Part shown: positions 3,420 to 45,700 of the stretch, piece after piece
How the letters are laid out: each line of letters starts with the position of its first letter
Position numbering within the stretch: the stretch's first letter is position 1
Assembly: GCA_016717725.1 (NCBI GenBank)
Contig: JADKFA010000002.1
Coordinates: 78,226-142,225 of the forward strand
Direction: 5' to 3'
DNA: 64,000 nt
From: Bacteroidota bacterium
GTDB taxonomy: Bacteria; Bacteroidota; Bacteroidia; AKYH767-A; OLB10
Program-made: the position numbers and the translations under genes
The notes under the pieces: generated by a model
Database searches by the model: none
Told to the model about the DNA's origin: nothing
The model's input: the letters and a program-made list of their open reading frames with translations, nothing else

Positions 3420-4112
3420 ATGCATCTCTTCTTCGCTCCCGATTTATCATCTTCCGAATTTTACCTGCCCGACGAGGAGACCCATCACTTCATTCATGTG
3501 CTTCGATTTTCTCAAGGAAAACAAATTGAAGTAACCGATGGAAAGGGTGCACGCGCTTTATGTGAAGCCATTCAAGTATCAAAAAAACAAGTGCTGCTAA
3601 CTGTTTTAGAGAAAGAAAATTTTCCAACTCCCACTCGTAAATTACATGTTGCCATTGCGCCAACAAAAAATATCGATCGCTTCGAGTGGTTTGTAGAAAA
3701 GGCGACGGAGTTGGGTATTGCTGAAATCACACCCCTCATTTGCCGTCACTCCGAACGCAAGACGTTAAAACTAGAACGGATTCAAAAGTTGATGGTCTCC
3801 GCAGCACGCCAATCTCAACATTATTTTTTCCCGCTGGTGAATGCTGAAGTCTCATTCGAGAAGTTTTTGGAATCAATGAATGAAAATAATGATTCAGCTT
3901 TTATTGCTCATTGTGAAGAATCCGAAAAGGTCGAGGCTAGAGAATTAGCTTCTACTATGAATGCTATCGTCTTGATTGGCCCTGAAGGTGATTTCTCCCA
4001 TGAAGAGATTGAAAATGCATTGAAGAAGGGATTTAAGGCATTGTCGCTGGGAAATTCACGCCTCAGAACCGAGACCGCCGGATTAAAAGCCGTAGCTGCC
4101 TTTAATCTTTAA
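3420..4112 (+). CDS. rsmE: 16S rRNA (uracil1498-N3)-methyltransferase RsmE
   Basis: The 3216..4112 ORF carries a 68-codon N-terminal extension that lies inside the repeat tract. The conserved RsmE sequence starts at MHLFFAPDL (ATG 3420). The LIGPEGDFS motif and the C-terminal region are typical of the RsmE/SPOUT family. Confidence 0.8.
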   Translation: MHLFFAPDLSSSEFYLPDEETHHFIHVLRFSQGKQIEVTDGKGARALCEAIQVSKKQVLLTVLEKENFPTPTRKLHVAIAPTKNIDRFEWFVEKATELGIAEITPLICRHSERKTLKLERIQKLMVSAARQSQHYFFPLVNAEVSFEKFLESMNENNDSAFIAHCEESEKVEARELASTMNAIVLIGPEGDFSHEEIENALKKGFKALSLGNSRLRTETAGLKAVAAFNL

Positions 4113-4156
4113 AGTTTCCTCATCCAATAATGGTTCACATTTCTTAGTTTTGTAAG

Positions 4157-4816
4157 ATGATGAAGAAAGTATGGGTTGTATTCGCGGTGATTTTTTTCTC
4201 TTCTTTCACACCAGCTGGATCAAGTATGAAAATCGCACTGTTGAAGTATAGTGGTGGTGGCGATTGGTATGCTAACCTAGATACATCACTAAAAAATTTG
4301 ATTGATTTCTGCAATCGTAATTTGGGAACTACCATCAGTGAAGAGCAAGGCATTGTTGAAGTGGGAAGTCCCGAATTGTTCAATTATCCATTTGTCCACA
4401 TGACTGGACATGGTAACGTAGTTTTTAATACGCAAGAAACTCAAAACTTAAGAAATTATTTAATGGCCGGTGGCTTCTTGCACATCTCCGATAATTATGG
4501 AATGGATAAATTCATCCGACCTCAAATGAAAAAAGTTTTTCCAGAATTGGATTTTGTGGAAATTCCTTTTAATCATCCTATCTATCATCAAAAGTTTGAT
4601 TTCCCAAATGGATTACCAAAAGTACATGAGCACGATGGAACAGATTCACAGGGATTTGGCTTGTTTTATGATGGACGTTTAGTTTGTTTTTATGATTTCG
4701 AATGTGATTTGGGCGATGGTTGGGAAGATCCTGAAGTGCATAAAGATTCTCCCGATGCGCGACAAAAGGCCTTGCGTATGGGAGCAAATATGATTCAATA
4801 TGTGTTTAATAATTAA
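4157..4816 (+). CDS. conserved hypothetical protein (DUF4159-like, from memory) with N-terminal signal/anchor
   Basis: 219 aa. Hydrophobic N-terminus. The family assignment is from memory only. Confidence 0.45.
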   Translation: MMKKVWVVFAVIFFSSFTPAGSSMKIALLKYSGGGDWYANLDTSLKNLIDFCNRNLGTTISEEQGIVEVGSPELFNYPFVHMTGHGNVVFNTQETQNLRNYLMAGGFLHISDNYGMDKFIRPQMKKVFPELDFVEIPFNHPIYHQKFDFPNGLPKVHEHDGTDSQGFGLFYDGRLVCFYDFECDLGDGWEDPEVHKDSPDARQKALRMGANMIQYVFNN

Positions 4817-27947: not shown

Positions 27948-28018
27948 GTTAGATGTTGGATATTAGATAGAACATCCAACATCCAACATCTAATCGCGAA
28001 GCCTCGAGACTAAAATCT
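27948..28018. repeat. inverted repeat hairpin (GATGTTGGAT / ATCCAACATC) with CATCCAA heptamer x3, followed by a 26-bp AATCGCGAAGCCTCGAGACTAAAATC element
   Basis: Directly visible. The 26-bp element abuts the dnaK stop codon. Confidence 0.8.
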
Positions 28019-29923
28019 ATTTCTCCTTCACTTCTTCAAAATCAACATCCGTAACATTATCGGTTGCTGATGCGGTAGGTTCACCTTCTTGGGTTTGTTG
28101 TCCATCGGGAGCGCCTGCTTCTTGAGAAGCATTGTAAAGATCCTTAGATGCTGCTTCCCATGCTGCATTTAATTCTGTGGTTGCTATTTCAATGGTTGGC
28201 CAATCTTTTTGCTGATGTGCTTCCTTTAATTTTGTAAGAGCAGCTTCGATGGTTGCTTTTTTGTCAGCCGGAATTTTTTCTCCAAACTCCTTTAATTGTT
28301 TTTCTGTATTGAAGATTAAAGAATCAGCTTGATTGATTTTATCTACTTCTTCTTTTGCCTTGCGATCGCTTTCGGCATTGGCTTCTGCTTCGCGTTTCAT
28401 TCGTTGAATTTCTTCTTCGTTTAATCCGAAGAAGCTTCGATACGGATGTTTTGTGATTTACCGCTTGCTTTGTCTTTCGCAGTTACATGTAGAATTCCAT
28501 TCGCATCAATATCAAATGTAACTTCGATTTGTGGTATGCCGCGTGGAGCAGGAGGGAAGCCATCTAAGTGAAACCTACCGATGGTGCGATTGTCTTTCGA
28601 CATCGGACGCTCTCCTTGCAACACGTGAATCTCTACAGATGGCTGGTTGTCTGAGGCGGTAGAGAAAATTTCAGATTTACGAGTAGGAATAGTGGTGTTC
28701 GACTCAATTAGTTTAGTCATTACTCCGCCCATAGTTTCAATTCCCAATGAAAGAGGAGTAACATCTAATAACAATACGTCTTTCACTTCTCCGGTTAATA
28801 CTGCACCTTGAATGGCAGCTCCAACAGCAACTACTTCATCTGGGTTTACACCCTTGGAAGGTTTCTTTCCGAAAAATTTCTCAACTAATTCTTGGATTGC
28901 AGGAATTCGGCTTGATCCACCTACTAAAATAACTTCATTGATATCATTTGACGTCAACTTCGCATCTGCTAGTGCTTTTTTACAAGGCTCAAGTGTGCGT
29001 TGGATTAATTTATCCGCTAACTGTTCAAACTTCGCACGTGTTAATGTTTTTACTAGATGTTTTGGTATTCCATCAACTGGCATAATGTATGGAAGATTGA
29101 TTTCCGTTTGTGTTGAACTGGATAATTCAATCTTTGCTTTTTCAGCAGCTTCTTTTAAACGCTGTAAAGCCATAGGGTCTTTTCTTAAGTCGATACCTTC
29201 ATCGCTCTTGAACTCATCCGCCATCCAATCAATAATTACTTGGTCGAAATCATCACCACCTAAGTGAGTATCTCCGTTAGTTGATTTAACTTCAAACACT
29301 CCATCTCCTAATTCAAGAATGGAAATATCAAATGTTCCACCACCTAAATCGAATACTGCAATTTTATTGTCGTTATGATTTTTATCTAAACCATAAGCTA
29401 ATGCTGCAGCTGTAGGCTCATTGATGATACGTAAAACTTTTAATCCTGCAACTTCACCCGCTTCTTTCGTTGCTTGACGCTGTGCATCGTTAAAATAGGC
29501 AGGTACAGTAATTACTGCTTCACTTACTTCATATCCTAAATAATCTTCAGCGGTCTTCTTCATTTTTTGAAGAACCATCGCAGAAATTTCTTGCGCAGTA
29601 TATAAACGATCGTTGATTTTTACTCGTGGAGTATTGTTGTCTCCTTTTACGACCTCATAAGGTACTCTTGAAATTTCCAATGAAACTTTATCAAAAGATT
29701 CACCCATAAATCGCTTGATAGATGAAATAGTATGAGTTGGATTCGTGATCGCTTGTCTTTTGGCTGGGTCACCCACTTTACGCTCTCCATCTTTAATAAA
29801 TGCAACAATGGAAGGCGTTGTTCTGCGTCCTTCACTATTTGGTATCACCACTGGCTCATTCCCTTCCATCACTGCCACACAAGAGTTCGTGGTACCAAGG
29901 TCAATTCCTATTACTTTTTTCAT
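28017..29923 (-). CDS. dnaK: molecular chaperone DnaK (Hsp70), interrupted by a 1-nt frameshift at about 28410
   Basis: N-terminal ORF 28421..29923 ([22 protein letters not shown]). C-terminal ORF 28017..28400. The junction reads ...IEASSD* in one frame and [15 protein letters not shown] in the other. Confidence 0.92.
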
Positions 29924-32134: not shown

Positions 32135-33169
32135 ATGAAAGAAGCATTATTAAAGGATATTCAACCGGAAGTAAGAAATTTTCTTGGAAAATATGTAGAC
32201 CTAAAATCTACTAAAACCAAGTTGATGATTACTACTACTGCCTTTAATATTGAGAATATGGAAGACGGCTCAACGCAGTCTATAGTTAATCTTAAAAAGA
32301 TTAATGATATTCGATTTGTAAACAAATTTCAAGAAGCTATTAATGAAAAACTTCCCATGGGTGGTGTTTATGTAGGATTTGTAGAAACCCAGGAGCAAAG
32401 AAGATATCGTTTATTGAAGAAATTTGTACCTGGATTCGCACATTTATATTTTGTTTTTGATTTCATTTTTAAAAGAGTTTTTCCAAAATTGCCATTATTT
32501 AAAAAAGTTTATTTCTTTATTACCAACGGTCGTAATCGTGTGATGTCAAAAGCAGAAGCATTAGGTCGTTTAGCTTCTTGTGGATTTAAAATTATAGAAG
32601 TAAAAGTAATTGGGAATTATACATATTTCGTTGGAAAAAAAGAACGACAACCCCATTTTGATTTATCACCTTCCTATGGTCCGCTGTTTACAATGAACAG
32701 AATTGGAAAGGATGGAAAAATTATTCAAGTATATAAGTTTCGTACCATGTATCCATATGCTGAATATTTGCAGGAGTATATTTACTCTCAAAATAAATTA
32801 GCAGCAGGAGGTAAGTTTGCTGAAGATTTCAGAATTACAAGTTGGGGTAAATTTATGCGTAAAACCTGGTTGGATGAATTGCCAATGGTGATTAATGTCT
32901 TGAAAGGAGATATTAAAATTGTGGGTGTGCGTCCGTTAAGTAAACACTATTATGGGCTTTATACTAAAGAACTACAAGAGAAACGAATTTATTCAAAGCC
33001 AGGTTTGTTGCCACCGTTTTATGTGGATATGCCGAATACTTTGGATGAAATTATCGAGTCTGAATTAAAGTACTTGAGAGCGTATGAAAAAAGACCTTTT
33101 TTAACAGATATTAAGTATTTCTTTTCAATCTGTTCAAATATTATTTTCAGAAAAGCAAGAAGTAATTAA
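32135..33169 (+). CDS. sugar transferase (polyprenyl glycosyl-phosphotransferase, Bac_transf family) with an extra N-terminal domain
   Basis: Bac_transf core in the C-terminal half: YKFRTM...DELPMVINVLKGDIKIVGVRP. Convergent with, and overlapping by 4 nt, the membrane glycosyltransferase-like gene on the opposite strand. Confidence 0.75.
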   Translation: MKEALLKDIQPEVRNFLGKYVDLKSTKTKLMITTTAFNIENMEDGSTQSIVNLKKINDIRFVNKFQEAINEKLPMGGVYVGFVETQEQRRYRLLKKFVPGFAHLYFVFDFIFKRVFPKLPLFKKVYFFITNGRNRVMSKAEALGRLASCGFKIIEVKVIGNYTYFVGKKERQPHFDLSPSYGPLFTMNRIGKDGKIIQVYKFRTMYPYAEYLQEYIYSQNKLAAGGKFAEDFRITSWGKFMRKTWLDELPMVINVLKGDIKIVGVRPLSKHYYGLYTKELQEKRIYSKPGLLPPFYVDMPNTLDEIIESELKYLRAYEKRPFLTDIKYFFSICSNIIFRKARSN

Positions 33170-34665
33170 TTTGACTTTTTAAATATTTGAAATTTTCCAA
33201 TGAGGGTATCTCGCTCGTAATTTTTTATTGGAACTTCAATAAATTCGGTTAATTCCTCTCCTTCGCGCGTAATGATGTATGGAATTTTTCCATCCTCTAA
33301 TAAAATTTGGAATTCTTTAAAGTGAAAAATTCCGATTGGTCTTGTAAAGTATAATGCTACCTCTCTACAAGGAAATAGGGCCTTGTCTGAAAGTTGTAAG
33401 TTCAATGTGTTCTCTTTGTGAAAATCAGTAAGAATCCATTCCCCATCTTTAATCTTTGATTTAAGATAGTTGGAAACATCTATGCAATTCAGGTAATTTT
33501 TCTTCGCTTTTTTCATCATGCCGAGATCTCCCCAGCCTTTGTCGTTGGCAGCCGATATGATGAAGAATGGCGAAAGCATTAATGCAAACAGTACAACCTG
33601 ACTGGTTGGGCCGATTTGATTCTTTAAAAGTAGAGCAGCACCATAGATTGATAGTGCAATAAATTCTAAATAGTAGTTAGAGCCAGACCCCGCTTTGAAT
33701 GCTGTAATGGTGGCTGTAGTAAAAAACCATGCAATTCCAATTGATAAAAATATGTATCCTGGCCTACTGCGTTCTTTGAATAAAAGAAGTGCAATAAAGA
33801 ATCCGGATGCTAAAATGTAGGAAAATTTCAGGAAGAAGTTTTTAAGAATAACTTCTGTAAACCAATTAGGATTGAACCCGTTTTTAACACCATCTAACAC
33901 GTTTAATTTGAAGTAGGGTAACGAATCGGGATATATAAAAATTAAGGAAATAAGTAACGTAGCCATTGCCCCTCCCATGAAGACCGTCCATTGGTACATG
34001 GATCGTTGTAAAAAAATATAATAGATACAGCAAAACCCAAATAAAAAGACAGCTGTTTGTTTTGTTAATAGAGCCAACATGCAAAGTACACCACTGAGCA
34101 GTACAAGTCGAATATTGATGATATGTGGTGCTCTGTTGCTAAATATATTTTTTAAGAGTACAGCAAGAGTAGCTACAAAAAAGAAAAGGTATAAATTGTC
34201 GACTCTTGCATAAATGATGCTGGGTATAGAAAGAAAATATATGCAGGATAATGCAATCGCTAGATTCTTTTTTACCTGTAATGTCTTTACTAAAGTTCTT
34301 CCGATTACAAAAACAGTTGATGCGTCGAGGATTAGGCAGAAAACTCTGTTGACTACCATCATGGAATGCACATCTTTTGTGACACCAAGTAGTTTTCCAA
34401 TAAAAGTTACCACATAAAAATGTAATGGCATATATTGTATGATAGGAAAAGGTGCTGCCTCCGGGTTTGTGTAGAGTTCACTCCCAGATAATATACGCAT
34501 GATTCCATACATGACATTAATTGAAACACCACCAATCTCCGGTAAATAAGAAAATGCAAGATTAATTCGTAAAATAAATAAACATATCGTCATCATTAGA
34601 ATGATGAAGAGGAGTATGGCTCCGGGCGATATCTTTAATCGAGTAATATTCATTTTTTTTGCCAT
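33166..34665 (-). CDS. polytopic membrane protein, probable GT-C-fold glycosyltransferase (ArnT/PMT-like) with C-terminal soluble domain
   Basis: 499 aa. About 12-13 TM helices and a roughly 100-aa C-terminal globular tail. Assigned by topology and gene context rather than a strict motif. Confidence 0.45.
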   Translation of the reverse strand: MAKKMNITRLKISPGAILLFIILMMTICLFILRINLAFSYLPEIGGVSINVMYGIMRILSGSELYTNPEAAPFPIIQYMPLHFYVVTFIGKLLGVTKDVHSMMVVNRVFCLILDASTVFVIGRTLVKTLQVKKNLAIALSCIYFLSIPSIIYARVDNLYLFFFVATLAVLLKNIFSNRAPHIINIRLVLLSGVLCMLALLTKQTAVFLFGFCCIYYIFLQRSMYQWTVFMGGAMATLLISLIFIYPDSLPYFKLNVLDGVKNGFNPNWFTEVILKNFFLKFSYILASGFFIALLLFKERSRPGYIFLSIGIAWFFTTATITAFKAGSGSNYYLEFIALSIYGAALLLKNQIGPTSQVVLFALMLSPFFIISAANDKGWGDLGMMKKAKKNYLNCIDVSNYLKSKIKDGEWILTDFHKENTLNLQLSDKALFPCREVALYFTRPIGIFHFKEFQILLEDGKIPYIITREGEELTEFIEVPIKNYERDTLIGKFQIFKKSN

Positions 34666-35360
34666 ACCCCAATTAATGACTTCCCGGTAGAATAACCGAT
34701 AATCGGATCAATTATTTTTGAAACAGGAACGATGAGTCGATCCCAGAATTTTACATCCTTTAATGTGGGATACTCTTTTTTGAGAAACCATTTGTTGGTG
34801 AGCGATGCGAAAAAACCTAGACAATCTAAGTAAAATATTTTTCTCTTCTGTAAACTGGCAGGAATGACTTTTTGAAGTCTTGCTTTATTATACCTTCTAT
34901 AATGGCCGATGGCTTTGTCGAATGGACTAAACAAATATTGATGAGCCGGAACCAATATAATCAAGTGCCCCCCAGGTTTTAAAAGGGTTGAAGCCCGATC
35001 AATTTCAAGAATATCGTTTTCTATATGTTCGATTACGTCAATATAAATAATGGTATCAAATAATTTTGTTGGGGAAAGAGAATCGGTCGTGCCAACCTGA
35101 AGTTGACTATTATTCGGAAGAATCTTTTCCTTCATCTTATTCTCAATTTTGCTGGCGAGAGACGCATCTGGTTCTAGACATAACCATGATGATACGGTTT
35201 CATTATGCAAATGCAATGTTGTCTCGCCGATCCCTGCACCAACCTCAAGTACTTCACCCTTAATAAAAGGTGACAAATGTTTTTTGTAATATCCCTTCCA
35301 ATTATGAGCATGACTGAATAGCTCCAATTCATTACCAATATAATGAGATGCTTCACTCAT
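34650..35360 (-). CDS. class I SAM-dependent methyltransferase
   Basis: Motif I VLEVGAGIG. Overlaps both neighbouring genes. Confidence 0.7.
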   Translation of the reverse strand: MSEASHYIGNELELFSHAHNWKGYYKKHLSPFIKGEVLEVGAGIGETTLHLHNETVSSWLCLEPDASLASKIENKMKEKILPNNSQLQVGTTDSLSPTKLFDTIIYIDVIEHIENDILEIDRASTLLKPGGHLIILVPAHQYLFSPFDKAIGHYRRYNKARLQKVIPASLQKRKIFYLDCLGFFASLTNKWFLKKEYPTLKDVKFWDRLIVPVSKIIDPIIGYSTGKSLIGVWQKK

Positions 35361-35364
35361 AACC

Positions 35365-36276
35365 TTAAGCGATAAAGTTTTTGTATTCCAATGCCGGGAT
35401 AAAATGACGTTGCGTCCGATAGTTTAATACATTGAACAAAAGTAAAAGTGAAATGAGAAATGCTTGAAATATTAAAATTAAAAAACTTAACACCACAAAG
35501 GAAGCCCATCCGGGAATAGCTAAGGGAGTAAAGAATCTAATTCCTGTGACAACAAAAATTCCTATTAATGAGATTGTGATTAATCCAAATGTCGATATTA
35601 ATATTCTAACGGCAAGCACATCTGTATACACCGCAATAGCACTTAACCCATGAATCACTAAAGCAAAGAAGTTCATCTTTGATTTGCCATGGTAACGTGT
35701 ACCCCGGTCAATATCGATGGAAGTGTATGCAAGACGCGATCTAATAATTCCCCCGGAAAAATGATTCCAAATGTCAGATACAAAAACAAGATTGTTAACT
35801 TTTTTAAATGGAATAGCACAAAAGTTTCCGAAATTAATTTTCTTTCCAGTTAATAGTCGGTAAATCTGTTTGTATAGAACATAGAAAAAGCGGAACCAAA
35901 ATCCTTCGTATCTTTTTTTTCTGGTGCCAAATATTATTTTATCTTTTTCTAAAACTGCTTTGTTGAGTAAAGCTGAAATGTCTGATGCTTTATCTTCACC
36001 ATCACCGTCCATCACAATCACATAATCCGAAGATGCATTATCGTTGATGTAACAAAGTCCAATTGCTATAGCACGTTGATGCCCTATGTTTCGGTTAAGT
36101 GTAATAACGTTAACGTTTGGTGGAAAATCCAAACGTTCATCTGTAGAACAATCATCAATAATATAATAACGGATTGAAACATTTTTCTGGAAGCTAATTT
36201 CTTTTTCGATATCAGTAATTAATTGAGCACACGACTCCCAATCATTAAATACCGGAATTAGAAGATTAACTTTCAT
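35365..36276 (-). CDS. GT2-family polyprenol-phosphate glycosyltransferase (ArnC/GtrB/DPM1-like) with two C-terminal TM helices
   Basis: IIDDCSTD and VIVMDGDGED (DxD) in the N-terminal half. Two TM helices at the C-terminus. This is the GtrB/ArnC architecture. Confidence 0.8.
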   Translation of the reverse strand: MKVNLLIPVFNDWESCAQLITDIEKEISFQKNVSIRYYIIDDCSTDERLDFPPNVNVITLNRNIGHQRAIAIGLCYINDNASSDYVIVMDGDGEDKASDISALLNKAVLEKDKIIFGTRKKRYEGFWFRFFYVLYKQIYRLLTGKKINFGNFCAIPFKKVNNLVFVSDIWNHFSGGIIRSRLAYTSIDIDRGTRYHGKSKMNFFALVIHGLSAIAVYTDVLAVRILISTFGLITISLIGIFVVTGIRFFTPLAIPGWASFVVLSFLILIFQAFLISLLLLFNVLNYRTQRHFIPALEYKNFIA

Positions 36277-36320: not shown

Positions 36321-36815
36321 TCATTTTTGTTCGGAGTTTTTGAGGCCAAAGGCTTTTACAAAGGCAATAATGGCTAAAAAAAGCAAAGGTGACAGAAATA
36401 AGTCCTCCAAATAATGGGAAAGCCCTGTACTTAATCTGTAATCCACTCCAAAATCTCCTAGTTTGAGTAGGAGAAAGCTAACTAACATATATCCGAGATA
36501 GAGCAGAACAATTGCTTTTAAAATAAAAAGAGATTTAGAATATAAATAAAGTATCGTTGCTCCGATAACCATAAATAGAAAACTATACAAAACAGCTGAT
36601 TGCAATTTCGAAGGGATTTTTATTCCAAATGTCCCTTTCATGGCTGTTTTTTCAAATTTAGCAACGTCTTTTTTTGGATATCTATTAATGAAAGTGGGAA
36701 CTCCTTTTTCAATAATAAGGAGTTTTTTTTCTCTTTTAAATCCAATATTGAGTAATAAGATGGCGAATAAAGCGATCAGTAACCAACGAAGTGGCGATGG
36801 AATATTATTTACCAT
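36321..36815 (-). CDS. exosortase F system-associated small membrane protein (candidate)
   Basis: 164 aa, about 4 TM. Overlaps the stop of the XrtF gene by 11 nt. XrtF is typically paired with such a protein. Confidence 0.5.
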   Translation of the reverse strand: MVNNIPSPLRWLLIALFAILLLNIGFKREKKLLIIEKGVPTFINRYPKKDVAKFEKTAMKGTFGIKIPSKLQSAVLYSFLFMVIGATILYLYSKSLFILKAIVLLYLGYMLVSFLLLKLGDFGVDYRLSTGLSHYLEDLFLSPLLFLAIIAFVKAFGLKNSEQK

Positions 36816-37377
36816 TTTCGTTACTTTTAGAAGACTGTGTCAATTCCTGAAGTTTACTATATCGATTCGTCCAAAATATCCATAAAATAAAAATTATAGA
36901 ATAAACCAACGTAGTAAAGGTATAATGATGATTAAAATCGAGGTATTCTGGAGCTTTAAATTGGATGAGCGATAATGCTACTGTTCTAAGTACATTAAAA
37001 AAATGAATGATAATACTTCCGATAATTATAAACCACCATTTATTTTTCCAGGTCCCAGGGAAACAAACTATAAAACCCGCAAAGAGTATAAATAACTCTA
37101 ATCCGTTACAGGGATTACCTACGCCAACAACGGCGTTATTTTGAATACATACAAGTGTTTGAGCATTTCCGGGTTGAGTACTACCGTCGTATCCAAGAAT
37201 ATCTAAAATATACCCTGCATCAGTGGCAACTTTGTAATTCAAATATTGATCTACCTTTTGGTTGGGAGCTATAAAATAGTCATATGAAATAAACCAAATG
37301 ATATATAATAGAACAGCTTTAATTACAAAGAGTACCATTGCTTTTTGCTTTGGATCCTTGTTGAGGAATTTTAACAT
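36805..37377 (-). CDS. xrtF: exosortase family protein XrtF
   Basis: 190 aa. Multi-TM. The cysteine motif GNPCNGLE resembles the exosortase catalytic Cys region, and NVLRTVAL resembles the conserved Asn/Arg motif. Its size matches the short XrtF class of Bacteroidota. Called by motif and size from memory, not by search. Confidence 0.65.
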   Translation of the reverse strand: MLKFLNKDPKQKAMVLFVIKAVLLYIIWFISYDYFIAPNQKVDQYLNYKVATDAGYILDILGYDGSTQPGNAQTLVCIQNNAVVGVGNPCNGLELFILFAGFIVCFPGTWKNKWWFIIIGSIIIHFFNVLRTVALSLIQFKAPEYLDFNHHYTFTTLVYSIIFILWIFWTNRYSKLQELTQSSKSNENGK

Positions 37378-37464
37378 GAGGCTAAATTAGTAAGGAAGGG
37401 CAGAATTCAAAATAAAAAAGGTCAGCAAATATTGCTGACCTTAAAATCTATCAAGTAATTGGAT

Positions 37465-37644
37465 TTAATCTTCCTTTTTCTTGTTATAAATTTTCTTGAT
37501 GCCATAACCTGCACCTGCAGCTAAAAGAAGGCTTAATCCACCATCAATTGGCACATTTGGGTTACTCTTTTGTGCCAGAAGCGGTAAAGCAAACATTACA
37601 ATTACCACAAGTAGAGGTAACGCTTTTATGAATGTTTTTTTCAT
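37465..37644 (-). CDS. 59-aa pre-peptide: signal peptide plus C-terminal PID-type sorting signal (P-I-D-G-G, TM helix, Lys-rich tail). Putative XrtF substrate
   Basis: MKKTFIKALPLLVVIVMFALPLLA | QKSNPNV | PIDGGLSLLLAAGAGYGI | KKIYNKKKED. The probable start is the second ATG, at 37644. Lies immediately upstream of xrtF on the same strand. Confidence 0.5.
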   Translation of the reverse strand: MKKTFIKALPLLVVIVMFALPLLAQKSNPNVPIDGGLSLLLAAGAGYGIKKIYNKKKED

Positions 37645-37743
37645 TTTAATTATTTTTTTTCTGGAGTTAATTAACAATTATGAGTTTTTAGAATGATTGT
37701 TTGAGGATAAGAAAGAGGGGCATTAAGCCCCTTTCTTAACTAT

Positions 37744-40700
37744 TTATTCAACAATCATTTTAATTTGTTCAACTACATTGTTAGTTTCAATCACTACGAA
37801 GTAGATGCCAGCAGACATTTGGCTAACGTTTACTTCTCTTTGATTCAAACCATTAGTAGCTGTTCCACGCTCTGTCATGATAGTACGTCCAGAAACATCA
37901 ACCATTTTAATGTTAAAGTCTGCACCTTCAGTACTATTGAAGACAATAGTTGCACGATCAGCAGCAGGTTTGGATATACATTCAAACCAGTTACCTCACC
38001 TTGATCACCAAAACGAGGACCGCAATGTGCAACGCTGATGGAGATACCATTCAATACACGGTTTGCGCTTGTTCCGCAACCATTAGACGCATTTACAGAT
38101 AAGTTCAATCCGCTAGCTGGGTTAGTTCCCCAAGTTGCAAGGATATCTTTTGTTCCTTGACCACTTGTAATAGTTGTACCACCAGGTAAAGACCATAAGT
38201 AAGTAGAAGCACCAGTTACTGTAGAAACACCGTAAGCTACACCAGATTGTCCTGGGCAGATAGTGATGTCACCAGTGATAACTCCAGGAAGACCAGGAGC
38301 ACCAGATACGTTCAAGTTGCGAGCAGAACCTACACCACAAGCATTTGTAGCACTTACAGATACATTTCCACCAGCATAAGCACCGTCAAAGTCAACAACA
38401 ATTGATTGTGTTCCTTGACCAGAAGTGATGGTTGCACCAACTGGAACAGACCAGTTATAACCAGTAGCAGAAAATACAGCAGCTGCTGTGTAAGCAACTC
38501 CTGTTGATCCACAAACACCAGTAGAAGGACCAGAAATAGATGCAGATACAGAAGGAACGTTAATAGAAACGCTACGATCACGATTTGGACTTATACCGCA
38601 AGCATTAGCAGCTCTACATGAAACTGTACCACCTACATAACCACCTGATACATCAACGGTAATTACGTTTGTTCCAGCACCAGAAAGAATGCTCATACCA
38701 GCAGGTAGAGTCCATACATAGTTTGAAGCACGAGCTACAGGAGCTACAGAGTAAACTCCATTGTCACCTGGACAAAGTTTTGTTGTACCAGAGATAGAAG
38801 AAGGTCTAACAGGGATAATTGCGCCAATATCAACTCCAAGTGAGCTAGGAGTACCATTACCACAAGCATTAGAAGGAGTAACCACTAAGTTTCCGATGAT
38901 TCCATCATGAACTGCCTGAGGAGCCCATGAAACGAAGATGGAATTAGTACCTTGACCGGAAACGATGATCATTCCGTTTGGTACGGTCCAAGAATATCCG
39001 GAAGCATCAAATACTGGGCTAATAGAGAATGTAGCAGAACCTGTTACAACAGCCATACATTGTACTGCAGGACCTGAGATTGGACCTGCAACAAGAAGGT
39101 TTTCATCAATTAGACCATTACAATCATCATCAATTAAGTTACAAATTTCTGTGGCAGCTGGGTTAACAGCAGCATTGTTATCATCACAATCTGTTGAGTT
39201 ACCAACATAACCTACTGGCGCACCATTACAAGTACTTACTGAACTAGAAGCATCACCATAAGAGTCACCATCAACATCAGCATAATAAGTAATGAAAGTT
39301 AAACCGTCATCAACTAATAAATTACAATCATCATCTACACCGTTACAAACTTCAGTTGCACCAGGATAAACAGTATTATCATTATCGTTACAGTCACCAC
39401 CACAAGATGTGTAACCGTCATTATCAACGTCAAAACCTTCGTCAGTTAATCCATCACAATCATCATCAATTGAGTTACAAATTTCAGTAGCAGCAGGATT
39501 AATTGAAGGATTAGTATCATCACAATCAGTTGCATCAGCAGAATATCCAACTGGAGCAGCAGCTTCACAACTTAAAATACTTGATCCAGCGTTACCATAA
39601 GTATCGCCATCAACATCAGCATAATATGTGTAAGTTGGAGTTACAACTTCAACTGTTTGGTTTGAGCTATAACAAATATCTAAACCACCTAAAGTGTAAG
39701 TAATAGTGTGGAAACCAGCAGCAGCAAGAGCAGGATCAAAAGAATTACCAGAAACACCAGTTCCTGAGAATGTTCCACCAGCAACAGCAGGAGTTAAAGT
39801 AACCAAACCAGCATTTTCACAAACAGTAGCACCAATTCCACCGAAAGAAGCATCAGCAGGACCAAAATCATCGATTCTTAAACCGAAACCTGAGTTAGTT
39901 GTGGTGCCGTATCCGTCAACTTGGATGTAATAAGTTTGACCAGGAGTTAAGCAATGTGCTCTTGCATAAGAATTATAAGGAGAACCTGAAGAGTCATCAT
40001 TTGCAGCAACTAATACCGCCGCTCCAGTTAAAAGATCACCACATGCTGAAGCAGACCAAACCGCTACTTGACTATCCCAGTTACCTGGAGAGAATCCTAC
40101 TCCATAACGACCAGAACCACCCATTGGAACCGTGAAAGAGAACCAAACCGTTTGATTAGCTGCAACACACCAACTACTATTTCCTGTACATCCAGTTGCA
40201 GGAGGTTGTGATTCTCCTACTTCAAGAGTAGCACCTACGTTAGAATAAGGACCATTAACGCCAATATTTACGGGCACAGCATCACAAACATTATCACCTT
40301 GAAGAGTAACAACAGTAGTCACAATATTTGAACTGTCATCAGTACAACCTGAAACAGAAGATACCAAACGTACTTCATAGGTTCCTGGACCTCCAAAGAA
40401 AATATTTTGAGGATCATTTGTACCACCTGGTACAATTAACCAAGTTGTACTTGGTTGAAGACGGCCTATCCACTGTAAAGTTCCTGTAGAAGTTCCGCTA
40501 CTGTATGAAGCAGCCTGACTAGCATAAGCAGACGCAGGTCCACTGATTGTTCCTGCAGCAGGTGGTGGAACAGCTTCAACAAATACAGAAGATGAAGGTA
40601 CCGTAGAAGCTCCACAAGTTACGTTGCAACGGTAGTAATATGAAATTGCTACGTTGTTTTCAGTCCACGCAGCTGTTGTTGCACCAACGATGTCATAATA

Positions 40701-42269
40701 ATCAACATCGTCATTAGAATATTGCCATTGGTAAGTTTGACCAGTTCCACCAGATGTACCAGTAAGAGAAAGGTTAAGGTTAACAGTAGTAGTATTACAG
40801 AATTGAGTAATGTTTGATTGAGCAGATCCAGCCGTAGGAGGATCAATACAAACTGGCTCAGGTTGCAAGTCTACAAGATAATCTTCTGTTTCACCATAAG
40901 AATAAGTTCCGCAAGCTGTAATAGCTGATGATTCTTTAATTATTACACGCATTCCTGTTAAACCAGAAGGACCTCCAGTAGGAATTGTAAAATTAAATAG
41001 AGGAACAGAGTTTAATGCTGTTGTAGTATTATAAGAAGCTACTCTTTCAGCAGGATCTTCATAAGTTCCACTTTGGTTTATATCAATAAATACAGCAACA
41101 TAAGCACCATAATGGCTACCTGAACAAGAACCGTTGCGTACGCGCATACTTTGCGGTGTATTGAAATAAATTACAGGCGCAGGAACGGCTGTATTATTAG
41201 TATATGTTTCACATGCAGTTGCTGCAGTTCCAACATATAAAGTACCTAATTCAACAGAATCAATTTTTGTATCTGCAGAATTAGTTGCATTTGAAGCACA
41301 ATAGCAATTTAGGAATGAATTTACACCAACAAGAACAGAATTAGATGTTCCTGGGTTTGGATCGTATAAACATGAAACGATACAATGGAAATACTTAGGT
41401 GTAGCACCCATGGTGAATGCAGCAGAAGAAGAATTCGTTCCGAAAGGTGTCCAGTTTATATCGTCATCAGAATGTTCCCAAACGTAAGATACGTCAGAGC
41501 CTGATGTAACATTTTGTAGACTTAAACCAACAGAAGTTCCACTACATGCATTTGCAGTACTAGCAACTGTATTTCCCGGAGCAGGTTGTCCAGCACAGGG
41601 TGATGCGCTAATAATATCTAATTGAATATTAGGACGAAGTGCGGAAGATGTACTTGATCCTGAATAACTTCCCGGAAGTGCAGCAGGATCAGGATTATAA
41701 GTATCACTGTACAATTGTCTTACTGTTGTGGTAGGAGAAGTGGTAGTGTAGCGCCAGCCTGCAGAGCAGGTATACGAAGCTGCATTCTCATCAATTGCAA
41801 CTATCAGATTTCCGCCGGAGTAGTTAAAAGGAGTGGAAAGCGTAATTTCCATCCAGTTTCCTACAGCAGGGAAAGTGACAATACCAGAGAAACACTGGGT
41901 CATTGCAGATGTCGGTGTATAGTTAGCAGCTCCTGTTGTTAAAGCGGTAAGTGCAGTGTTGCCAAGATAAACCGTCCAGTTGTCGGACGTAGTTGTGGGG
42001 GAGAAAGAAGTTGCATAATAAAATCTGATCTTACTAATTGTTCCCGAACCACTGTAACCTCCGGCAACGATCTCCGCTGATGTATATAACATCTGAGTAT
42101 AAGAATACCCATAGCAGGAACGAATCGGGAAGGACGTTGTTGTTGTCGTACCAGCTCCGATTTGAACTGTTGTTTGTGCCTGTAAGTTGCCGGAAGCTAA
42201 TCCAAGAAGGATCATGAAGCTGACCAGCCAACGAGACATGCTTTTCATTGTGTAACTGTTGTTTTTCAT
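37744..42269 (-). CDS. giant (about 1500 aa) T9SS-secreted protein with Ig-like/PKD-like domains, MopE-type Cys/Asp-rich putative metal-binding repeats, and a type-A C-terminal sorting domain that is out of frame (frameshift at about 37985)
   Basis: Probable start MKNNSYTMKSMSRWLVSFMILLGLASG (42269). Repeats CDDTNPSINPAATEICNSIDDDCDG... and CNDNDNTVYPGATEVCNGVDDDCN... occur twice. The C-terminal sorting domain NVYPNPAADRATIVF...GIYFVVIETNNVVEQIKMIVE* is read only after a +1 shift near CCAAACCTGC. Confidence 0.7.
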
Positions 42270-42767
42270 TTTGTTTATATTTATTGTTAGATTTTTTAAT
42301 TCAGCTCTATAGGTAAAAAGATTTATGAATGCATGTAAATGCATTTTACATAAAGTATTTTCTTCAGTAACATGTAAATTTGTTTTGTTATAACTAGTTC
42401 TAGATTTTGCTGGAATTTCCGGATACACAGCAAAAACAAATATATGACTTCTTATGACAATTGCAAGCATTTTTTTGATTATGTTAATTTCGTTTTGCAA
42501 GTAAGTATTCCCATTTTTTTACAATTGCTTGGTTTTCACAGATTCGAATTTACATTTGATTCCATTTATTTTATCAACTGTTTGGTGAATAGTTAAAAAG
42601 AATAGGTGAAAATGTGTAAGGTTCTTGGATCTTTATTAAAAAAGTGAAGTTTTTTCTTGACTTGTATAGGTTTAATGTAATATCTTGCATGGTTAAGTTA
42701 CTTGCTTTCCAATCTTTCAAGTGCCAATTTTACACTCCCATCATTCAATTATTATCTAAATCAGCTT

Positions 42768-45700
42768 ATGAAAGCAAAGCTATTATCAGTAAATTATGTA
42801 TTATCAATTCTAAGTTTTTTGATGTTTTTTTTCAATGGATTTTCATTTGTCAATGCTCAAGAAAATAGAGTGTATTGGCAAACGATTCCTAAGTCTAGTT
42901 TAATTAATTTAAATAGCAGGTATGCACTCCCAGAAAAGTTTGTCACTTTGCAATGTAATACAAACTTAATTCGACAACAATTAAGTGTTGCTCCTATGGA
43001 GTTTACTTCGGGTGCGTTAAACTCAACTGTTACTTTTAAGATACACATGCCTGATGGTAATATTCTTTCTTTTAAGATGGTAGAATCGATGGTGATGGAT
43101 CCTGTATTAGCAACCCAATTTCCATCCATAAAAACGTATTCAGGACAAGGCATCGAAGAAAGAGATGCTATTTTAAAAGTAAGCATAAGCCCAATTGGAT
43201 TTCATGCTATGATTTTGTCTCCTAAAGGAAATGTTTTTATTGATCCATTGGAGCCCGGGAATACTAATGATTATATAGTATATTTTAGAAATGATTTTAA
43301 AGAATATCGTTCGTTTAATTGTGAGTTGGATAGTTTGCCAATTAATAAAAGTAGATCTTATCAGCAAATTGCAACCGGTCAAGCAAATAAAACACATGGT
43401 ACCCAATTAAGAAATTATCGTTTAGCACTTGCTTGTACAGGTGAATATGCGGCCTATTATGGAGGTACTACATCGGGTGCTATGGCCGGTATGGTTGCTA
43501 CAATGAATCGTGTAAACGGAATTTATGAATCAGAAGTGTCAGTTCGAATGACAATGGTTGCAAACAATAATTTATTGATCTATACAAATGCAAGCACAGA
43601 TCCATTTACGAATACAAATGGTTCTACTATGCTTGGACAAAATATTACGAATTGTAATACCGTCATTGGAAGTGCAAATTATGATATTGGTCATGTTTTT
43701 AGTACCGGTGGAGGTGGAGTTGCTTATTTAGGTGTTCCATGTACTTCGAATAAGGCAGGTGGCGTAACAGGTTCTGGAAGCCCCGTAGGTGATGCTTTTG
43801 ATGTGGATTATGTGGCACACGAAATGGGACATCAATTTGGAGGGAGCCATACTTTTAATGCGACAACAAGTTCTTGTGGTGGAGGTAATAGAAGTGCTTC
43901 AGCAGCTTATGAACCCGGAAGCGGAATTACTATTATGGCATATGCTGGAATTTGTGGTGCTACCAATAATTTGGCCCCAAATAGTATTGCGTATTTTCAT
44001 ACGCATAGCTTCGATCAAATTACTAATTATATCACAACTGGAAGTGGAAATACATGTCCAACAACAACCGCTACAGGGAATACGCCTCCAACTGTTACTC
44101 CAGATGGTTTAAATTATTATATACCTTATTTAACTCCGTTTTCGTTAAATGCAACAGGTTCGGATCCTAACGGTGATGCATTGACGTATTCATGGGAAGA
44201 ATATGATTTGGGTGCAGCTGGGAATTGGAATGCACCCGTAGGCGATGCTCCCATTTTCCGTCCATTTCCTCCCACAAGTACTGGAACTCGTATTTTTCCA
44301 AAAATTTCGGATATCGTAAATAATGCTACAACGATTGGAGAAATTCTACCTAGCTACGCACGCGTATTAAAGTTTAAAGTAACCGCTCGTGATAATAGAG
44401 TAAATGGTGGAGGTGTGAATAGAATTGATGCAAATGTTTTAGTAAATGTCATCAATACAGGTGCTGCGTTCACAGTTACTGCACCTAATACTGCAGTTAC
44501 TTGGGCTACGGGTGCAACGGCAAATGTGACGTGGAATGTATCATCAACAAATATTGCTCCCATCTCCTGTGCTAATGTGAATATTTTATTGTCTACAGAT
44601 GGAGGATATACTTATCCGATAACTCTGCTATCAAATACACCAAATGACGGAAGTGAAAATATTACTGTTCCTGGAAATGTTACTTCTACCGCACGTGTGA
44701 AAGTGGAAGGTGCCGGAAATATCTTTTTTGATATTTCAAATGTAAATTTTAATATTATTGCAGGCGGTGGTGTTTTAACAACAATTTCTACCGATCCTAT
44801 TAGTCCTTTAAATTTATGCCCTGGACAAGCTCTCACCGTTGGATTTGCGGGCAATGGAAATGCAAACGCAGGGAATGTTTATACAGCGCAATTATCTTCG
44901 TCCATAGGTTCGTTTGCAAGTCCAACTAATATTGGAACATTAAGTAGTACCTCCTCTAGTGGAAGTATTTCTTGCATAATTCCAGGAGGAAGTATTGCAG
45001 GTACTGCTTATCGAATTCGAGTTGTTTCTTCTCTCCCCTCTGTGGTGGGTTTGGATAATGGAGCTAATTTAATAATGATTGGAACCCTAGGAGCAACCGG
45101 AACAATTTCTGGTCCGTCTAGCGTTTGTCAAGGACAGAACGGTGTGGTTTATTCAACAACGGCGGTTTCAAATGCATCCAGTTATGCTTGGTCTTTGCCT
45201 ATTGGATTTACCATCACATCAGGATCAGGAACGAATAGTATAACAGTAAGCATAGCCGCAAATGCATCTTCTGGTTCAATTTCAGTAACTCCTTCGAATA
45301 TTTGTACTACGGGTTCTACTTCTAATGCCTATTCCGTTTCCGTTTCTCCACTTCCTTCTACAGCAGGAGTACTATCTGGCATTACCAGTGTATGTCAAGG
45401 TGATCAAAATATCATTTATTCTGTTCCTTCCATATTATTTGCTACAAGTTATTCGTGGAGTTTACCTGTTGGGTTTTCTATCGTTGGAACTCCTACAAAT
45501 AGCATCACGGTTAATGTTGCTCCTGGAGCAGCTTCTGGAACGATATCAGTTTACGGGGTTAATTCATGCGGAAATGGTGGTCCTTCATCTCTAGCTATTG
45601 CGGTGAACTCTGCTCCAAGCGCTGCTATTCTATCAGCGGGTGGACCTCTTACAGTTTGTTCTCCTAATACGGTTTCAATGTCATTCTCTCCTTCTGTTGG

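Follow-up and report, generated by a model that had tools for sequence, protein, structure and literature searches.

The 64-kb window, by which we mean the whole stretch of DNA analysed here, carries on its minus strand, as do all other window genes and elements described below, a small gene (37465..37644; ATG at 37644, stop at 37465-37467) that lies between a gene for a large T9SS type A cargo protein and the gene for an exosortase. The 59-aa product of this mini gene reads, on translation of the open reading frame (ORF), MKKTFIKALPLLVVIVMFALPLLA / QKSNPNV / PIDGG / LSLLLAAGAGYGI / KKIYNKKKED, and GenBank holds an exact match under the name 'hypothetical protein' (MBK9636628.1). Its N-terminus is a putative signal peptide (MKKTFIKALPLLVVIVMFALPLLA, 37573..37644) with a basic n-region (MKK), a 17-residue hydrophobic core and Ala at position -1. 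By inspection and a simple, home-made hydrophobicity and -3/-1 rule that prefers Q at +1, the predicted signal peptidase I cut falls at LLA|Q; by the same Q-preferring rule Gln occupies +1 in 230 of 265 family members, which agrees with the Q-rule of Bacteroidetes (PMC5837995). The cut would be followed by a stub of seven residues, QKSNPNV (37552..37572), the sole part predicted to stay outside the membrane, of which only QKS falls outside the recognition motif because NPNV belongs to the extended motif P-[DN]-[VA]-P-I-D-G-G. The signature motif P-I-D-G-G (37537..37551), a short hydrophobic segment rich in small residues (GGLSLLLAAGAGYGI, 37498..37542) and a basic tail predicted to be cytoplasmic (KKIYNKKKED, 37468..37497) follow the stub. 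The preliminary description had given the sequence between signal peptide and PIDGG exactly, and had correctly noted the basic tail, which is two residues longer than the KKIYNKKK it reported. A reading of the protein as a lipoprotein was rejected by inspection, as the window protein has no Cys and the Cys-containing variants have no lipobox. The motif D-[ST]-x, at which Bacteroidetes proteins are O-glycosylated, is likewise not present in the stub by inspection.

With PIDGG, 13 hydrophobic or small residues and the lysine-rich tail, the C-terminal end has the tripartite layout of an exosortase-type sorting signal, and an HMM search assigned it to the PID-CTERM class that had been suggested: model NF046080 (PID_CTERM) scored 51.8 bits (E = 4.9e-14), twice its cutoff of 26, with profile positions 1-25 of 25 aligned to residues 31-55 of 59. 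The origin of the gene in Bacteroidota had also been named rightly. The likeness to PEP-CTERM proteins extends to the layout and to the homologous enzyme, and the PEP-CTERM model itself gave no match to the mini protein at E <= 1. Substitution patterns between homologous loci revealed strong purifying selection on the mini gene: loci L003 and L004 differ by 8 synonymous and 0 non-synonymous changes, L017 and L012 by 20 synonymous versus 3 non-synonymous changes, and distant pairs show a pS of 0.7-0.9 with a pN of 0.12-0.26. These results confirm the mini ORF as a true gene and as a member of the PID-CTERM family; in a motif scan it proved to be the only PID-type ORF in the window.

Two hairpins flank the gene. 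Between the mini gene and the exosortase gene lies a terminator-like hairpin with a T-run (37408..37442; 11-bp stem, 3-nt loop), which all 16 close loci possess, their stem substitutions preserving the pairing (GGTCAGCA/TGCTGACC, GGTCGGC/GCCGACC, GGCCGGC/GCCGGCC, GGTTAGC/GCTAACC) and which gave only sub-threshold matches in Rfam. A second, G+C-rich hairpin with a weak T-run (37716..37732) follows the cargo gene, 71 bp before the mini ATG, so that co-transcription of cargo gene and mini gene is not assured in the window. A scan for sigma-70 promoters returned sites no more frequently than in shuffled sequence, in a scan whose scope does not extend to Bacteroidota promoters.

XrtX and its associated membrane protein

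The exosortase gene (36805..37377, 190 aa; MBK9636627.1) begins 87 bp downstream of the mini gene on the same strand. The preliminary description was therefore right in placing the mini gene directly upstream of an exosortase gene, and wrong in calling it xrtF: the best-scoring exosortase model is NF046081 (XrtX; 196.4 bits, cutoff 170), followed by TIGR04128 (XrtF; 103.4 bits, cutoff 90) and XrtY (62.2 bits), with the exosortase signature model TIGR04178 at 52 bits (cutoff 23). We rejected the XrtF identity since XrtX scores clearly higher and the partner protein matches the XrtX-associated family only. The GenBank record of the enzyme still carries the XrtF label. An alignment of 68 XrtX sequences shows C90, N128, R131, H150 and H151 without variation, and the window enzyme belongs to a divergent XrtX branch (196 bits versus about 250 in Hymenobacter).

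The next gene (36321..36815), whose first 11 nt are shared with the end of xrtX, encodes a membrane protein of 164 aa that aligns with positions 2-145 of 147 of the XrtX-associated profile NF046082 (E = 6e-11), at 42 bits and thus below the cutoff of 75; TIGR04127 (exosortase F system-associated) gave no match at E <= 1. An HgcAB_like match of the same protein (E = 0.11) is not credible. A membrane-protein gene follows xrtX in nearly all loci, belonging either to cluster c6 (the clade of the window) or to cluster c1 (Hymenobacter). The window thus carries mini gene, xrtX and XrtX-associated gene in order, and the first two pass the curated cutoffs.

Three further genes follow. The first (35365..36276) encodes a GT2 glycosyltransferase (PF00535) with C-terminal membrane helices that resembles polyprenyl-phosphate sugar synthases, its best NCBIfam neighbours being PgfS, ArnC-like, PpgS and AglJ, all far under their cutoffs. 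The second (34650..35360), assigned by domain matches (Methyltransf_23, _12 and _25) and synteny, encodes a SAM-dependent methyltransferase, and the third (33166..34665, 499 aa) a glycosyltransferase of GT-C fold, as judged from homologues and predicted structure. Alone, the 499-aa protein matched no family, and a profile search of PDB sequences was also empty; 7 of 24 homologues match PMT_2 and others GT87, PMT or TMEM260, and its AlphaFold2 model (pLDDT 84, pTM 0.87) retrieved ArnT (5f15, E = 1.3e-6) in Foldseek, along with AglB, STT3, AftD and Pmt4. The GT2 gene was found only in the window and in loci L001-L008, L010 and L013, and the methyltransferase and GT-C genes are likewise accessory and clade-specific. 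Because this cassette is confined to one sub-clade it is not part of the core of the system, and the idea of a polysaccharide locus, in which it would have a core role, was rejected; domain annotation of the window revealed no large polysaccharide locus.

The linkage of the two core genes is asymmetric. A mini gene adjoins xrtX in 66 of 80 xrtX loci, one just upstream in each case and on the same strand in 65, whereas xrtX adjoins the mini gene in only 10 of 73 instances. One XrtX thus faces several mini genes, and contigs L107, L118, L125 and L147 hold two or three of them, each behind its own cargo gene. In 14 of the 80 xrtX loci the first threshold detected no mini gene; once the search was relaxed and the upstream frames were inspected, a single degenerate copy emerged (L059), and none in the others. 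Eight of these loci were tested and encode a true XrtX. The suggestion that the gene might be a decoy or an autoregulator of the sorting machinery fits poorly with this distribution, as most family members do not adjoin xrtX.

PID-CTERM proteins are tags without cargo

Conservation across the family is concentrated at the sorting signal. All 266 members share the P, D, G and G of PIDGG without exception, the second position being I in 245, V in 13, L in 6 and F in 2; the L, A, A, G, Y and G of the hydrophobic segment are nearly invariant, and KK stands straight after the helix in 253-265 of the 266, with a K/R-rich tail. Identity among close orthologues is 89% in motif plus helix and 54% in the signal peptide. 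The stubs vary by clade (QKSNPNV, QNCNPNV, QDPGGGPDV, QPGSGGP...) and, across the family, comprise 3 to 51 residues of low-complexity, P/D/G-rich sequence without a conserved core.

Every PID-CTERM protein that we inspected measures 45-125 aa and has no cargo domain. The best 120 of 300 matches in a search with the full protein are 49-79 aa long; a domain-only profile run against 1.84 billion representatives gave 2533 matches, the best 150 of which are 45-125 aa; and a Hymenobacter-type profile gave 2131, the best 120 spanning 46-80 aa. Mini and xrtX loci were also scanned by six-frame HMM search (168 loci), and all 105 mini genes in the 87 metagenome loci selected for a mini gene lie in stop-to-stop ORFs of at most 117 aa. 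The scan for larger cargo proteins bearing the same tag, as proposed in the preliminary description, came up with none in the best 120-150 matches of each large search or in the 168 loci. The tag-only build is accordingly, among the members inspected, a rule of the family and not an oddity of the window gene.

All homologues from the full-protein search carry the precomputed Pfam assignment PF28310 (PID_CTERM), and RefSeq labels the Hymenobacter orthologues 'PID-CTERM protein-sorting domain-containing protein'. A literature search for PID-CTERM or XrtX found no relevant paper; the system is known as curated database models (NF046080, NF046081, NF046082, PF28310) and its biology is unpublished.

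Mini genes sit behind T9SS type A cargo genes

The gene upstream of the mini gene (37744..42500) encodes a T9SS type A cargo protein of about 1580 aa with PKD-like, MopE-like and GEVED Pfam domains. It is frameshifted inside the C-terminal sorting domain (the break falls at VYPN|PAADRAT; orthologues are intact), and the tail in the shifted frame (37747..37995) matches the sorting-domain model TIGR04183 with 43.7 bits (cutoff 23). The cargo gene ends at 37744 and the mini ATG stands at 37644, in the same orientation. The preliminary description was silent on this neighbour.

The arrangement recurs. The ORF upstream of a mini gene shares its orientation in 59 of 63 cases, with a median gap of 61 bp, and 47 of 56 such neighbours (84%) match TIGR04183, compared with 5 of 50 control ORFs (10%) taken from these loci (odds ratio 47, p = 2.7e-15, for loci that are not phylogenetically independent). 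Loci selected for xrtX showed the same trend, with a sorting-domain gene just before the mini gene in 26 of 70 and at about 4% of other positions. The cargo-then-mini pattern is found across lineages and also in loci without xrtX, and the placement of mini genes after T9SS type A cargo genes is systematic. Many Hymenobacter loci have moxR and mutS on either side of the mini-xrtX pair, and there the cargo gene stands two positions off.

Homology between the window cargo and the Hymenobacter cargo proteins was considered and rejected, as the window protein matches just a few of them, weakly and over local stretches in N-terminal or internal regions. Most members of the large-protein cluster of the xrtX loci (c2) end in a sorting domain, and since these proteins match weakly and locally, it is probably the shared sorting domain that holds the cluster together.

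Discussion

The window gene is a real member of the PID-CTERM family, whose proteins are cargo-less and whose genes are linked to xrtX and to T9SS cargo genes. We infer a pathway of export, cleavage and transfer to an acceptor, with some functional T9SS connection, in which a pre-peptide would be cut by XrtX and a conjugate of the stub would serve the neighbouring T9SS cargo; to this pathway as a whole we assign a probability of roughly 60%. Sec would export the pre-peptide and signal peptidase I would cut after Ala24, giving a peptide of 35 residues that spans the inner membrane by its GGLSLLLAAGAGYGI helix, with Gln25 on the outer side and the lysine tail on the inner. XrtX, which keeps the Cys, Arg and His of the exosortase family, would recognise P-[DN]-V-P-I-D-G-G plus helix and make its cut at PID or close by. 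The analogy with archaeosortase A, for which a thioester intermediate resolved by the amine of an ethanolamine lipid has been proposed (PMC7157517), suggests the next step: the stub of roughly 8-10 residues, held as a thioester, would be handed to an amine on a lipid or glycolipid acceptor. Cleavage at PID with transfer of the short stub is, on this analogy, the most likely activity of XrtX, and because XrtX would pass on the stub, the product would be the stub and not a folded domain; the processed peptide or its conjugate, as originally proposed, is still the best reading of what the gene is for. As the conserved terminator hairpin separates mini gene and xrtX, the stub would be made in excess of the enzyme. 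Gene order suggests a functional link with the neighbouring secreted protein, which the stub conjugate would most likely serve, for instance by acting as an expendable anchor or adaptor whose production keeps pace with that protein.

A more specific version, to which we give a low probability, sees in the stub a ribosomal peptide that serves as anchor or adaptor for type A cargo and is used only once. Its C-terminus would be joined by XrtX to a membrane lipid or glycolipid, and the T9SS attachment sortase, PorU, would remove the C-terminal domain of the neighbouring cargo and then join that cargo to the stub. This would explain both the cargo-less tag and the provision of an own mini gene for each cargo gene. 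It would also explain the behaviour of Flavobacterium johnsoniae mutants of the sister XrtF system, which speaks for the pathway as a whole too: strains lacking xrtF or its partner gene share their phenotype row with strains lacking porU or porZ, whose products belong to the T9SS attachment complex, and biofilm formation and surface colonisation are lost exactly as in porU and porZ mutants (PMC10936215). Fjoh_0651, a tiny hypothetical gene of F. johnsoniae UW101, shows the phenotype of xrtF, porU and porZ as well and might encode the XrtF target. The Q-rule predicts cyclisation of Gln25 to pyroglutamate; the stub would then lack a free N-terminal amine, which counts against the simplest anchor chemistry.

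Alternatively, the mini protein might be a stand-alone XrtX substrate whose stub, or a lipid or glycan conjugate of it such as a surface lipopeptide, is itself the end product, the position behind T9SS cargo being a meaningless consequence of shared transcription or inherited gene order. The pairing with xrtX in most xrtX loci, the terminator-like hairpin between mini gene and cargo gene in the window and the Hymenobacter pairs with cargo two positions off all speak for this, and in the clade of the window the GtrB-like GT2 protein, the methyltransferase and the GT-C protein encoded after xrtX could decorate peptide or acceptor. We nevertheless hold it to be unlikely in light of the type A sorting domains upstream (84% versus 10% of controls), of the recurrence of the cargo-mini pattern in different lineages, even where the locus has no xrtX, and of the four contigs on which each of several mini genes stands behind its own cargo gene.

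Less probable still is an uncleaved inner-membrane partner, either of XrtX (as subunit, pseudo-substrate or regulator) or of the secreted neighbour (as a membrane escort). There is no cargo to deliver, and the best-conserved part of the protein is the helix, with a small-residue pattern (AAGAGYG) typical of helix-helix packing; as the helix is conserved beyond the needs of a mere membrane anchor, it could be a stable partner and not a leaving group. Against this stands the full tripartite sorting signal, which occupies the very end of the protein and whose invariant P, D, G and G lie at the membrane edge. A peptide that is mostly encoded away from xrtX, and by several genes in some loci, is moreover ill-suited to be the fixed subunit of one enzyme, and the hairpin implies that it greatly outnumbers the enzyme.

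That XrtX is a hydrolase releasing the stub as a free, diffusible signal is very improbable. Small gene, hairpin and processing enzyme are laid out as in peptide-precursor loci, and the stub sequences differ among clades, but stubs of such variable length and low complexity have no conserved core, synteny of the loci revealed no conserved neighbouring exporter, receptor or two-component system, and the characterised relatives anchor their substrates and do not release them (PMC7157517). Finally, a chance ORF, or the generic tail-anchored peptide unrelated to exosortases that had been named as a possible refutation, is refuted by the HMM match, purifying selection, thousands of homologues of the same layout and the linkage to xrtX, short and 'hypothetical' as the ORF is and with no promoter established.

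The window differs in nothing of kind from the PID-CTERM/XrtX/XrtX-associated system as modelled, its XrtX being divergent and also scoring above the XrtF cutoff. The XrtF system of Flavobacteria (TIGR04128/TIGR04127) likewise belongs to Bacteroidota and pairs an exosortase of about 175-190 aa with a small membrane partner encoded after it; it is dissimilar in that XrtF is not the best match to the window enzyme and TIGR04127 misses its partner. The substrates of XrtF are still unknown (PMC10936215), whereas XrtX has an obvious candidate. In size, the mini protein resembles targets of XrtJ. Here the 57-position PExPT-CTERM model (TIGR04200) aligns weakly (E = 0.064) with residues 11-57 of 59, that is, from signal peptide to tail, and according to the TIGRFAMs description XrtJ targets are about as small as the 59-aa protein. 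A sorting enzyme with one adjacent target has been defined by Haft as a dedicated system (PMC3237569; 10.1101/2023.06.07.544157); PID-CTERM appears to depart from this one-to-one relation on the target side, with few mini genes adjoining xrtX and several on some contigs, while on the enzyme side most xrtX loci do have an adjacent mini gene. PEP-CTERM/exosortase A shares the signal peptide, the motif of Pro plus acidic residue, the helix, the basic tail and a homologous Cys/Arg/His enzyme, but the PEP-CTERM tag ends many proteins that are unrelated to each other and often large, and is associated with exopolysaccharide loci, whereas the mini protein has neither cargo nor such a locus. PGF-CTERM/archaeosortase A of Haloferax volcanii, our mechanistic template, is the only relative with experimental support for cleavage-coupled lipid anchoring; it is archaeal, has another motif and acts on large S-layer and surface glycoproteins.

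On the T9SS side, the genes for PorP/SprF-like shuttle proteins lie directly downstream of type B cargo genes and are needed stoichiometrically (PMC12618676). Like the mini genes, they stand immediately 3' of a T9SS cargo gene in the same orientation; their products, however, are outer-membrane beta-barrels acting on type B cargo, while mini proteins are predicted inner-membrane pre-peptides of 55-83 aa next to type A cargo. For type A cargo, all of which uses PorV, no gene-adjacent partner is described in that work (PMC12618676). In Porphyromonas and Tannerella, after removal of the sorting domain, the C-terminus of the cargo is amide-bonded to a seryl or glycyl residue on the linking sugar of a glycolipid (PMC7468200), and a lipid- or glycan-linked stub could, purely by analogy, play the same role. 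Their linker is a single, enzymatically added amino acid and, unlike the stub, no ribosomal peptide.

In terms of annotation the gene is ordinary, and current NCBI models would name both it and its neighbour correctly. The gene bears on two long-standing questions, namely the acceptor in exosortase attachment and the targets of the short Bacteroidota exosortases (XrtF and relatives), and on the way in which surface proteins are anchored outside Porphyromonas and Tannerella. A tag-only substrate makes the chemistry tractable, as the product would be about ten residues long with a C-terminal adduct that mass spectrometry could read directly, and the system occurs in Hymenobacter species that can be cultured. 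From the unexpected pairing with T9SS type A cargo comes the notion, open to experiment, of exosortase and type IX sorting working together to fix proteins at the cell surface; should the stub indeed act as an anchor, tag and cargo would be encoded by two adjacent genes and handled by two sorting machines. The gene pairing thus hints that two bacterial protein-sorting systems are linked.

The mini gene encodes a standard member of the PID-CTERM family

Translation of the window yields an ATG-initiated open reading frame (ORF) of 59 residues on the minus strand, from 37644 down to 37465 (the mini gene), whose product comprises, from its N-terminus, a signal peptide (MKKTFIKALPLLVVIVMFALPLLA), a stub (QKSNPNV), the motif PIDGG, a hydrophobic segment (LSLLLAAGAGYGI) and a basic tail (KKIYNKKKED), in exact agreement with the layout given in the preliminary description. 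The protein scored 51.8 bits against NCBIfam NF046080 (PID_CTERM; cutoff 26), and Pfam PF28310, named PID_CTERM, is present on all its database homologues; NCBI and Pfam already have models for this family, the gene is one of its standard members, and re-annotation would give it a name. GenBank holds an identical sequence as 'hypothetical protein' (MBK9636628.1); its contig, 287 kb long, belongs to a Bacteroidetes metagenome-assembled genome (MAG). Naming of the family is inconsistent across public databases: UniRef lists some Hymenobacter members (our entries P0418, P0423 and P0424) as 'VPDSG-CTERM sorting domain-containing protein', and RefSeq names near-identical proteins PID-CTERM or 'hypothetical'.

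Among 266 PID-CTERM members the signal peptide almost always ends at Ala-Gln, with Gln at +1 in 230 of the 265 scored by a simple rule favouring Q. Signal peptidase I substrates of Bacteroidetes follow such a Q-rule, the Gln normally being cyclised to pyroglutamate (PMC5837995, PMC10653852). The stub spans 3–51 residues (median 11) and is composed of 19% Pro, 16.5% Asp and 14.6% Gly, the 7 residues of the window stub lying near the lower end of this range. As the conserved motif reaches upstream of PID (P-[DN]-[VA]-P-[I>V>L>F]-D-G-G), only Q-K-S of the window stub lies outside it. The 13 hydrophobic or small residues after G-G, with L, A, A, G, Y and G near-invariant, are directly followed by K-K and the basic tail. 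Hymenobacter stubs (loci L016–L080, e.g. L042, 5553..5882) share both their start (Q-P-G-S-G-G-P-x-P) and their end (P-T-A-V-P-[IL]-D-G-G), and the stub is therefore under constraint inside a clade.

Tag-only architecture is the rule across the family. A search with the full mini protein gave 300 matches, of which the best 120 were 49–79 aa long; a tag-only profile run against 1.84 billion cluster representatives gave 2533 matches at E <= 0.001, the best 150 being 45–125 aa long with a C-terminal domain; and a Hymenobacter-type profile gave 2131 matches, the best 120 being 46–80 aa long and many of them carrying the RefSeq name 'PID-CTERM protein-sorting domain-containing protein'. In 87 loci picked solely for the tag, all 105 tag copies lay in stop-to-stop ORFs of at most 117 aa, and the predicted mini proteins were 55–83 aa long. 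The four independent looks at the family all agree, and the larger cargo with the same tag that the preliminary description proposed to seek, or any folded cargo domain, was seen neither among the best-ranked matches nor among the 105 locus copies.

The adjacent enzyme is an exosortase X

The gene 87 bp downstream of the mini gene (36805..37377, minus strand) was called XrtF in the preliminary description, probably because GenBank labels the enzyme so. Its best match is exosortase X (NF046081), at 196 bits (cutoff 170) versus 103 for XrtF (cutoff 90), and the product of the following gene (36321..36815), which overlaps it by 11 nt, matches solely the XrtX-associated membrane protein family, below cutoff (E = 6e-11). 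By these profile scores the enzyme is XrtX. Its residues C90, R131 and H150/H151 are invariant among 68 XrtX sequences and correspond to the Cys/Arg/His set that characterises this protease family (10.1101/2023.06.07.544157); the catalytic set is intact.

Of 80 xrtX-selected loci, drawn from Bacteroidia MAGs and many Hymenobacter (all species-representative genomes), 66 have one mini gene adjoining xrtX; in 65 of these it shares the strand of xrtX and lies upstream, its end roughly 30–280 bp before the enzyme gene; the partner membrane-protein gene follows almost everywhere, and all 8 exosortases tested from loci lacking a mini gene were XrtX. Some genomes carry two complete cassettes: H. coccineus (L039 and L064) and one MAG, which has two PID-CTERM proteins among the Hymenobacter-type profile matches listed.

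Mini genes commonly lie behind T9SS cargo genes

Loci sampled by tag only (79 metagenome loci and 8 contigs) gave a second view. There xrtX lies within 1.5 kb of only 10 of the 73 minis with enough flanking sequence, several contigs (L107, L118, L125 and L147) hold two or three minis, with a separate cargo gene ahead of each, and tandem minis occur in L088, L119 and L150. (L147 is also listed with tandem pairs; the L088 pair, at 3849..4563, is directly followed by a called 38-aa ORF.) A same-orientation ORF precedes 59 of 63 minis at a median gap of 61 bp, and among 56 distinct upstream neighbours 47 carry the T9SS type A sorting domain (TIGR04183) in their last 130 residues and 44 match Pfam Por_Secre_tail, whereas TIGR04183 is matched by only 5 of 50 other ORFs drawn at random in these loci (odds ratio 47, p = 2.7e-15, counts that ignore shared ancestry). 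In the enzyme-selected loci a sorting-domain gene stands just before the mini in 26/70 and within two positions in 38/70 (other positions ~4%), and the window fits the pattern, the tail of its upstream gene scoring 43.7 bits against TIGR04183. Three groups show the mini-behind-cargo order: the window's clade, Hymenobacter and the P/D/G-stub group predominant in the metagenome sample. From the distances to xrtX, the multiple minis per contig and the neighbours' sorting domains, it follows that one XrtX goes with several minis, one usually beside the enzyme, and that minis most often have a T9SS cargo gene as their neighbour.

This pairing is read from gene order, and a stand-alone lipopeptide whose linkage to cargo genes is merely incidental is an unlikely alternative, to be set against the recurrence of the order in three groups. 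Still less probable is an uncleaved membrane partner, poorly reconciled with the several mini copies far from xrtX. That the stub is released as a signalling peptide is very improbable. A chance ORF can be dismissed: orthologues are equal in length across 16 related Bacteroidia genomes and close pairs differ almost only synonymously (8 synonymous and 0 non-synonymous changes between L003 and L004, 20 versus 3 between L017 and L012; in distant pairs synonymous sites are saturated, pS 0.7–0.9, with pN 0.12–0.26), and the mini gene is therefore real. Conservation along the mini protein is uneven among the orthologues, mean identity being 54% in the signal peptide, 75% in the stub, 89% in motif plus helix and 60% in the tail.

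Segments preceding the sorting domain recur in many cargo proteins (...NYNWLD.N...GNNYYRIKA... and ...FSVTADAAS...NRF.IVF..., in an alignment of the C-terminal 130 aa), and mini-paired cargo may represent a few cargo families rather than T9SS cargo generally. In the literature searched we found no paper on the PID-CTERM family; neither its lack of cargo nor the placement of its genes behind type A cargo genes seems to have been published.

Layout of the window locus

In minus-strand order, the type A cargo gene (42500 down to 37744) is followed by a G+C-rich hairpin (37732–37716), the mini gene, a hairpin with an 11-bp stem and a T-run (37442–37408), xrtX and the partner gene. The second hairpin is kept in 16/16 close loci, its stem varying in sequence with pairing preserved; such a layout would be expected if the mini gene needs expression well above that of the enzyme.

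Downstream, within 33166..36276 on the same strand, lie genes for a GT2 enzyme, a methyltransferase and a 499-aa membrane protein, whose predicted structure has a GT-C glycosyltransferase fold (pLDDT 84; Foldseek matches ArnT, AglB, STT3, AftD and Pmt4). This cassette is confined to one sub-clade and is therefore accessory, outside the core system. Among close relatives (L001–L017), stubs QKS[ND]PNV are always accompanied by the cassette after xrtX (window, L001–L008, L010, L013) and stubs Q[NS]CNP[NK][VI] never (L009, L011, L012, L014, L015, L017), a single evolutionary split, to be counted once. One idea prompted by this split is glycosylation of Ser27, or of the acceptor of the stub, in the cassette-bearing clade.

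The cargo reading frame breaks within the sorting domain (VYPN | PAADRAT; 37875..38000, minus strand; ORFs 37875..42500 and 37744..37905). The frame is intact in the L001 and L004 orthologues, and the break is probably an assembly indel, not a pseudogene. The essential gene dnaK (28017..29923, minus strand) is likewise split, into a 500-aa ORF (HSP70 profile positions 1–500 of 599) and a 127-aa ORF for the C-terminal lid, which points to indel errors in the assembly; fragmented ORFs also occur in the related long-read MAG loci L003 and L005. Divergent from the cargo gene, 42702..46910 (plus strand) encodes a 1402-aa protein with reprolysin-like M12B metalloprotease, PKD-like and P-domain modules, ending in ...RNSLETWSKFPVLMSPVVNFTFKN and not in a type A sorting domain; this C-terminal motif is also found in opposite-strand neighbours of L008, L010, L012, L015 and L017.

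A possible role for the stub in T9SS cargo attachment

We propose, as the most likely pathway, that the mini protein is exported by Sec and cut by signal peptidase I after Ala24, leaving a peptide with its tail inside and its stub outside. XrtX would recognise the motif and helix and cleave at PID. The stub would be bound to Cys90 as a thioester and then transferred to an amine of a lipid or glycolipid, as has been proposed for archaeosortase A (PMC7157517), giving a peptide of about ten residues with a new C-terminal group. With a mini gene accompanying each cargo gene, consumption of one stub per cargo molecule would be the simplest reading; type B T9SS cargo likewise depend on stoichiometric amounts of an SprF-like partner whose gene lies directly downstream (PMC12618676). 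An N-terminus cyclised to pyroglutamate would provide no attacking amine, which counts against the simplest chemistry.

In F. johnsoniae, deletion of xrtF or its partner gene gives the exact phenotype row of porU and porZ mutants, from which the rows of sprA and porV mutants differ (PMC10936215). Exactly the phenotype of xrtF, Fjoh_1449, porU and porZ mutants is seen for mutants of Fjoh_0651, a hypothetical gene so small that a 434-bp fragment including its promoter complements it (PMC10936215), and its product could be the XrtF target. In Porphyromonas and Tannerella the seryl or glycyl group of a glycolipid sugar is amide-linked to the cargo C-terminus (PMC7468200), and elsewhere a stub joined to a lipid could, by analogy, serve as such a handle.
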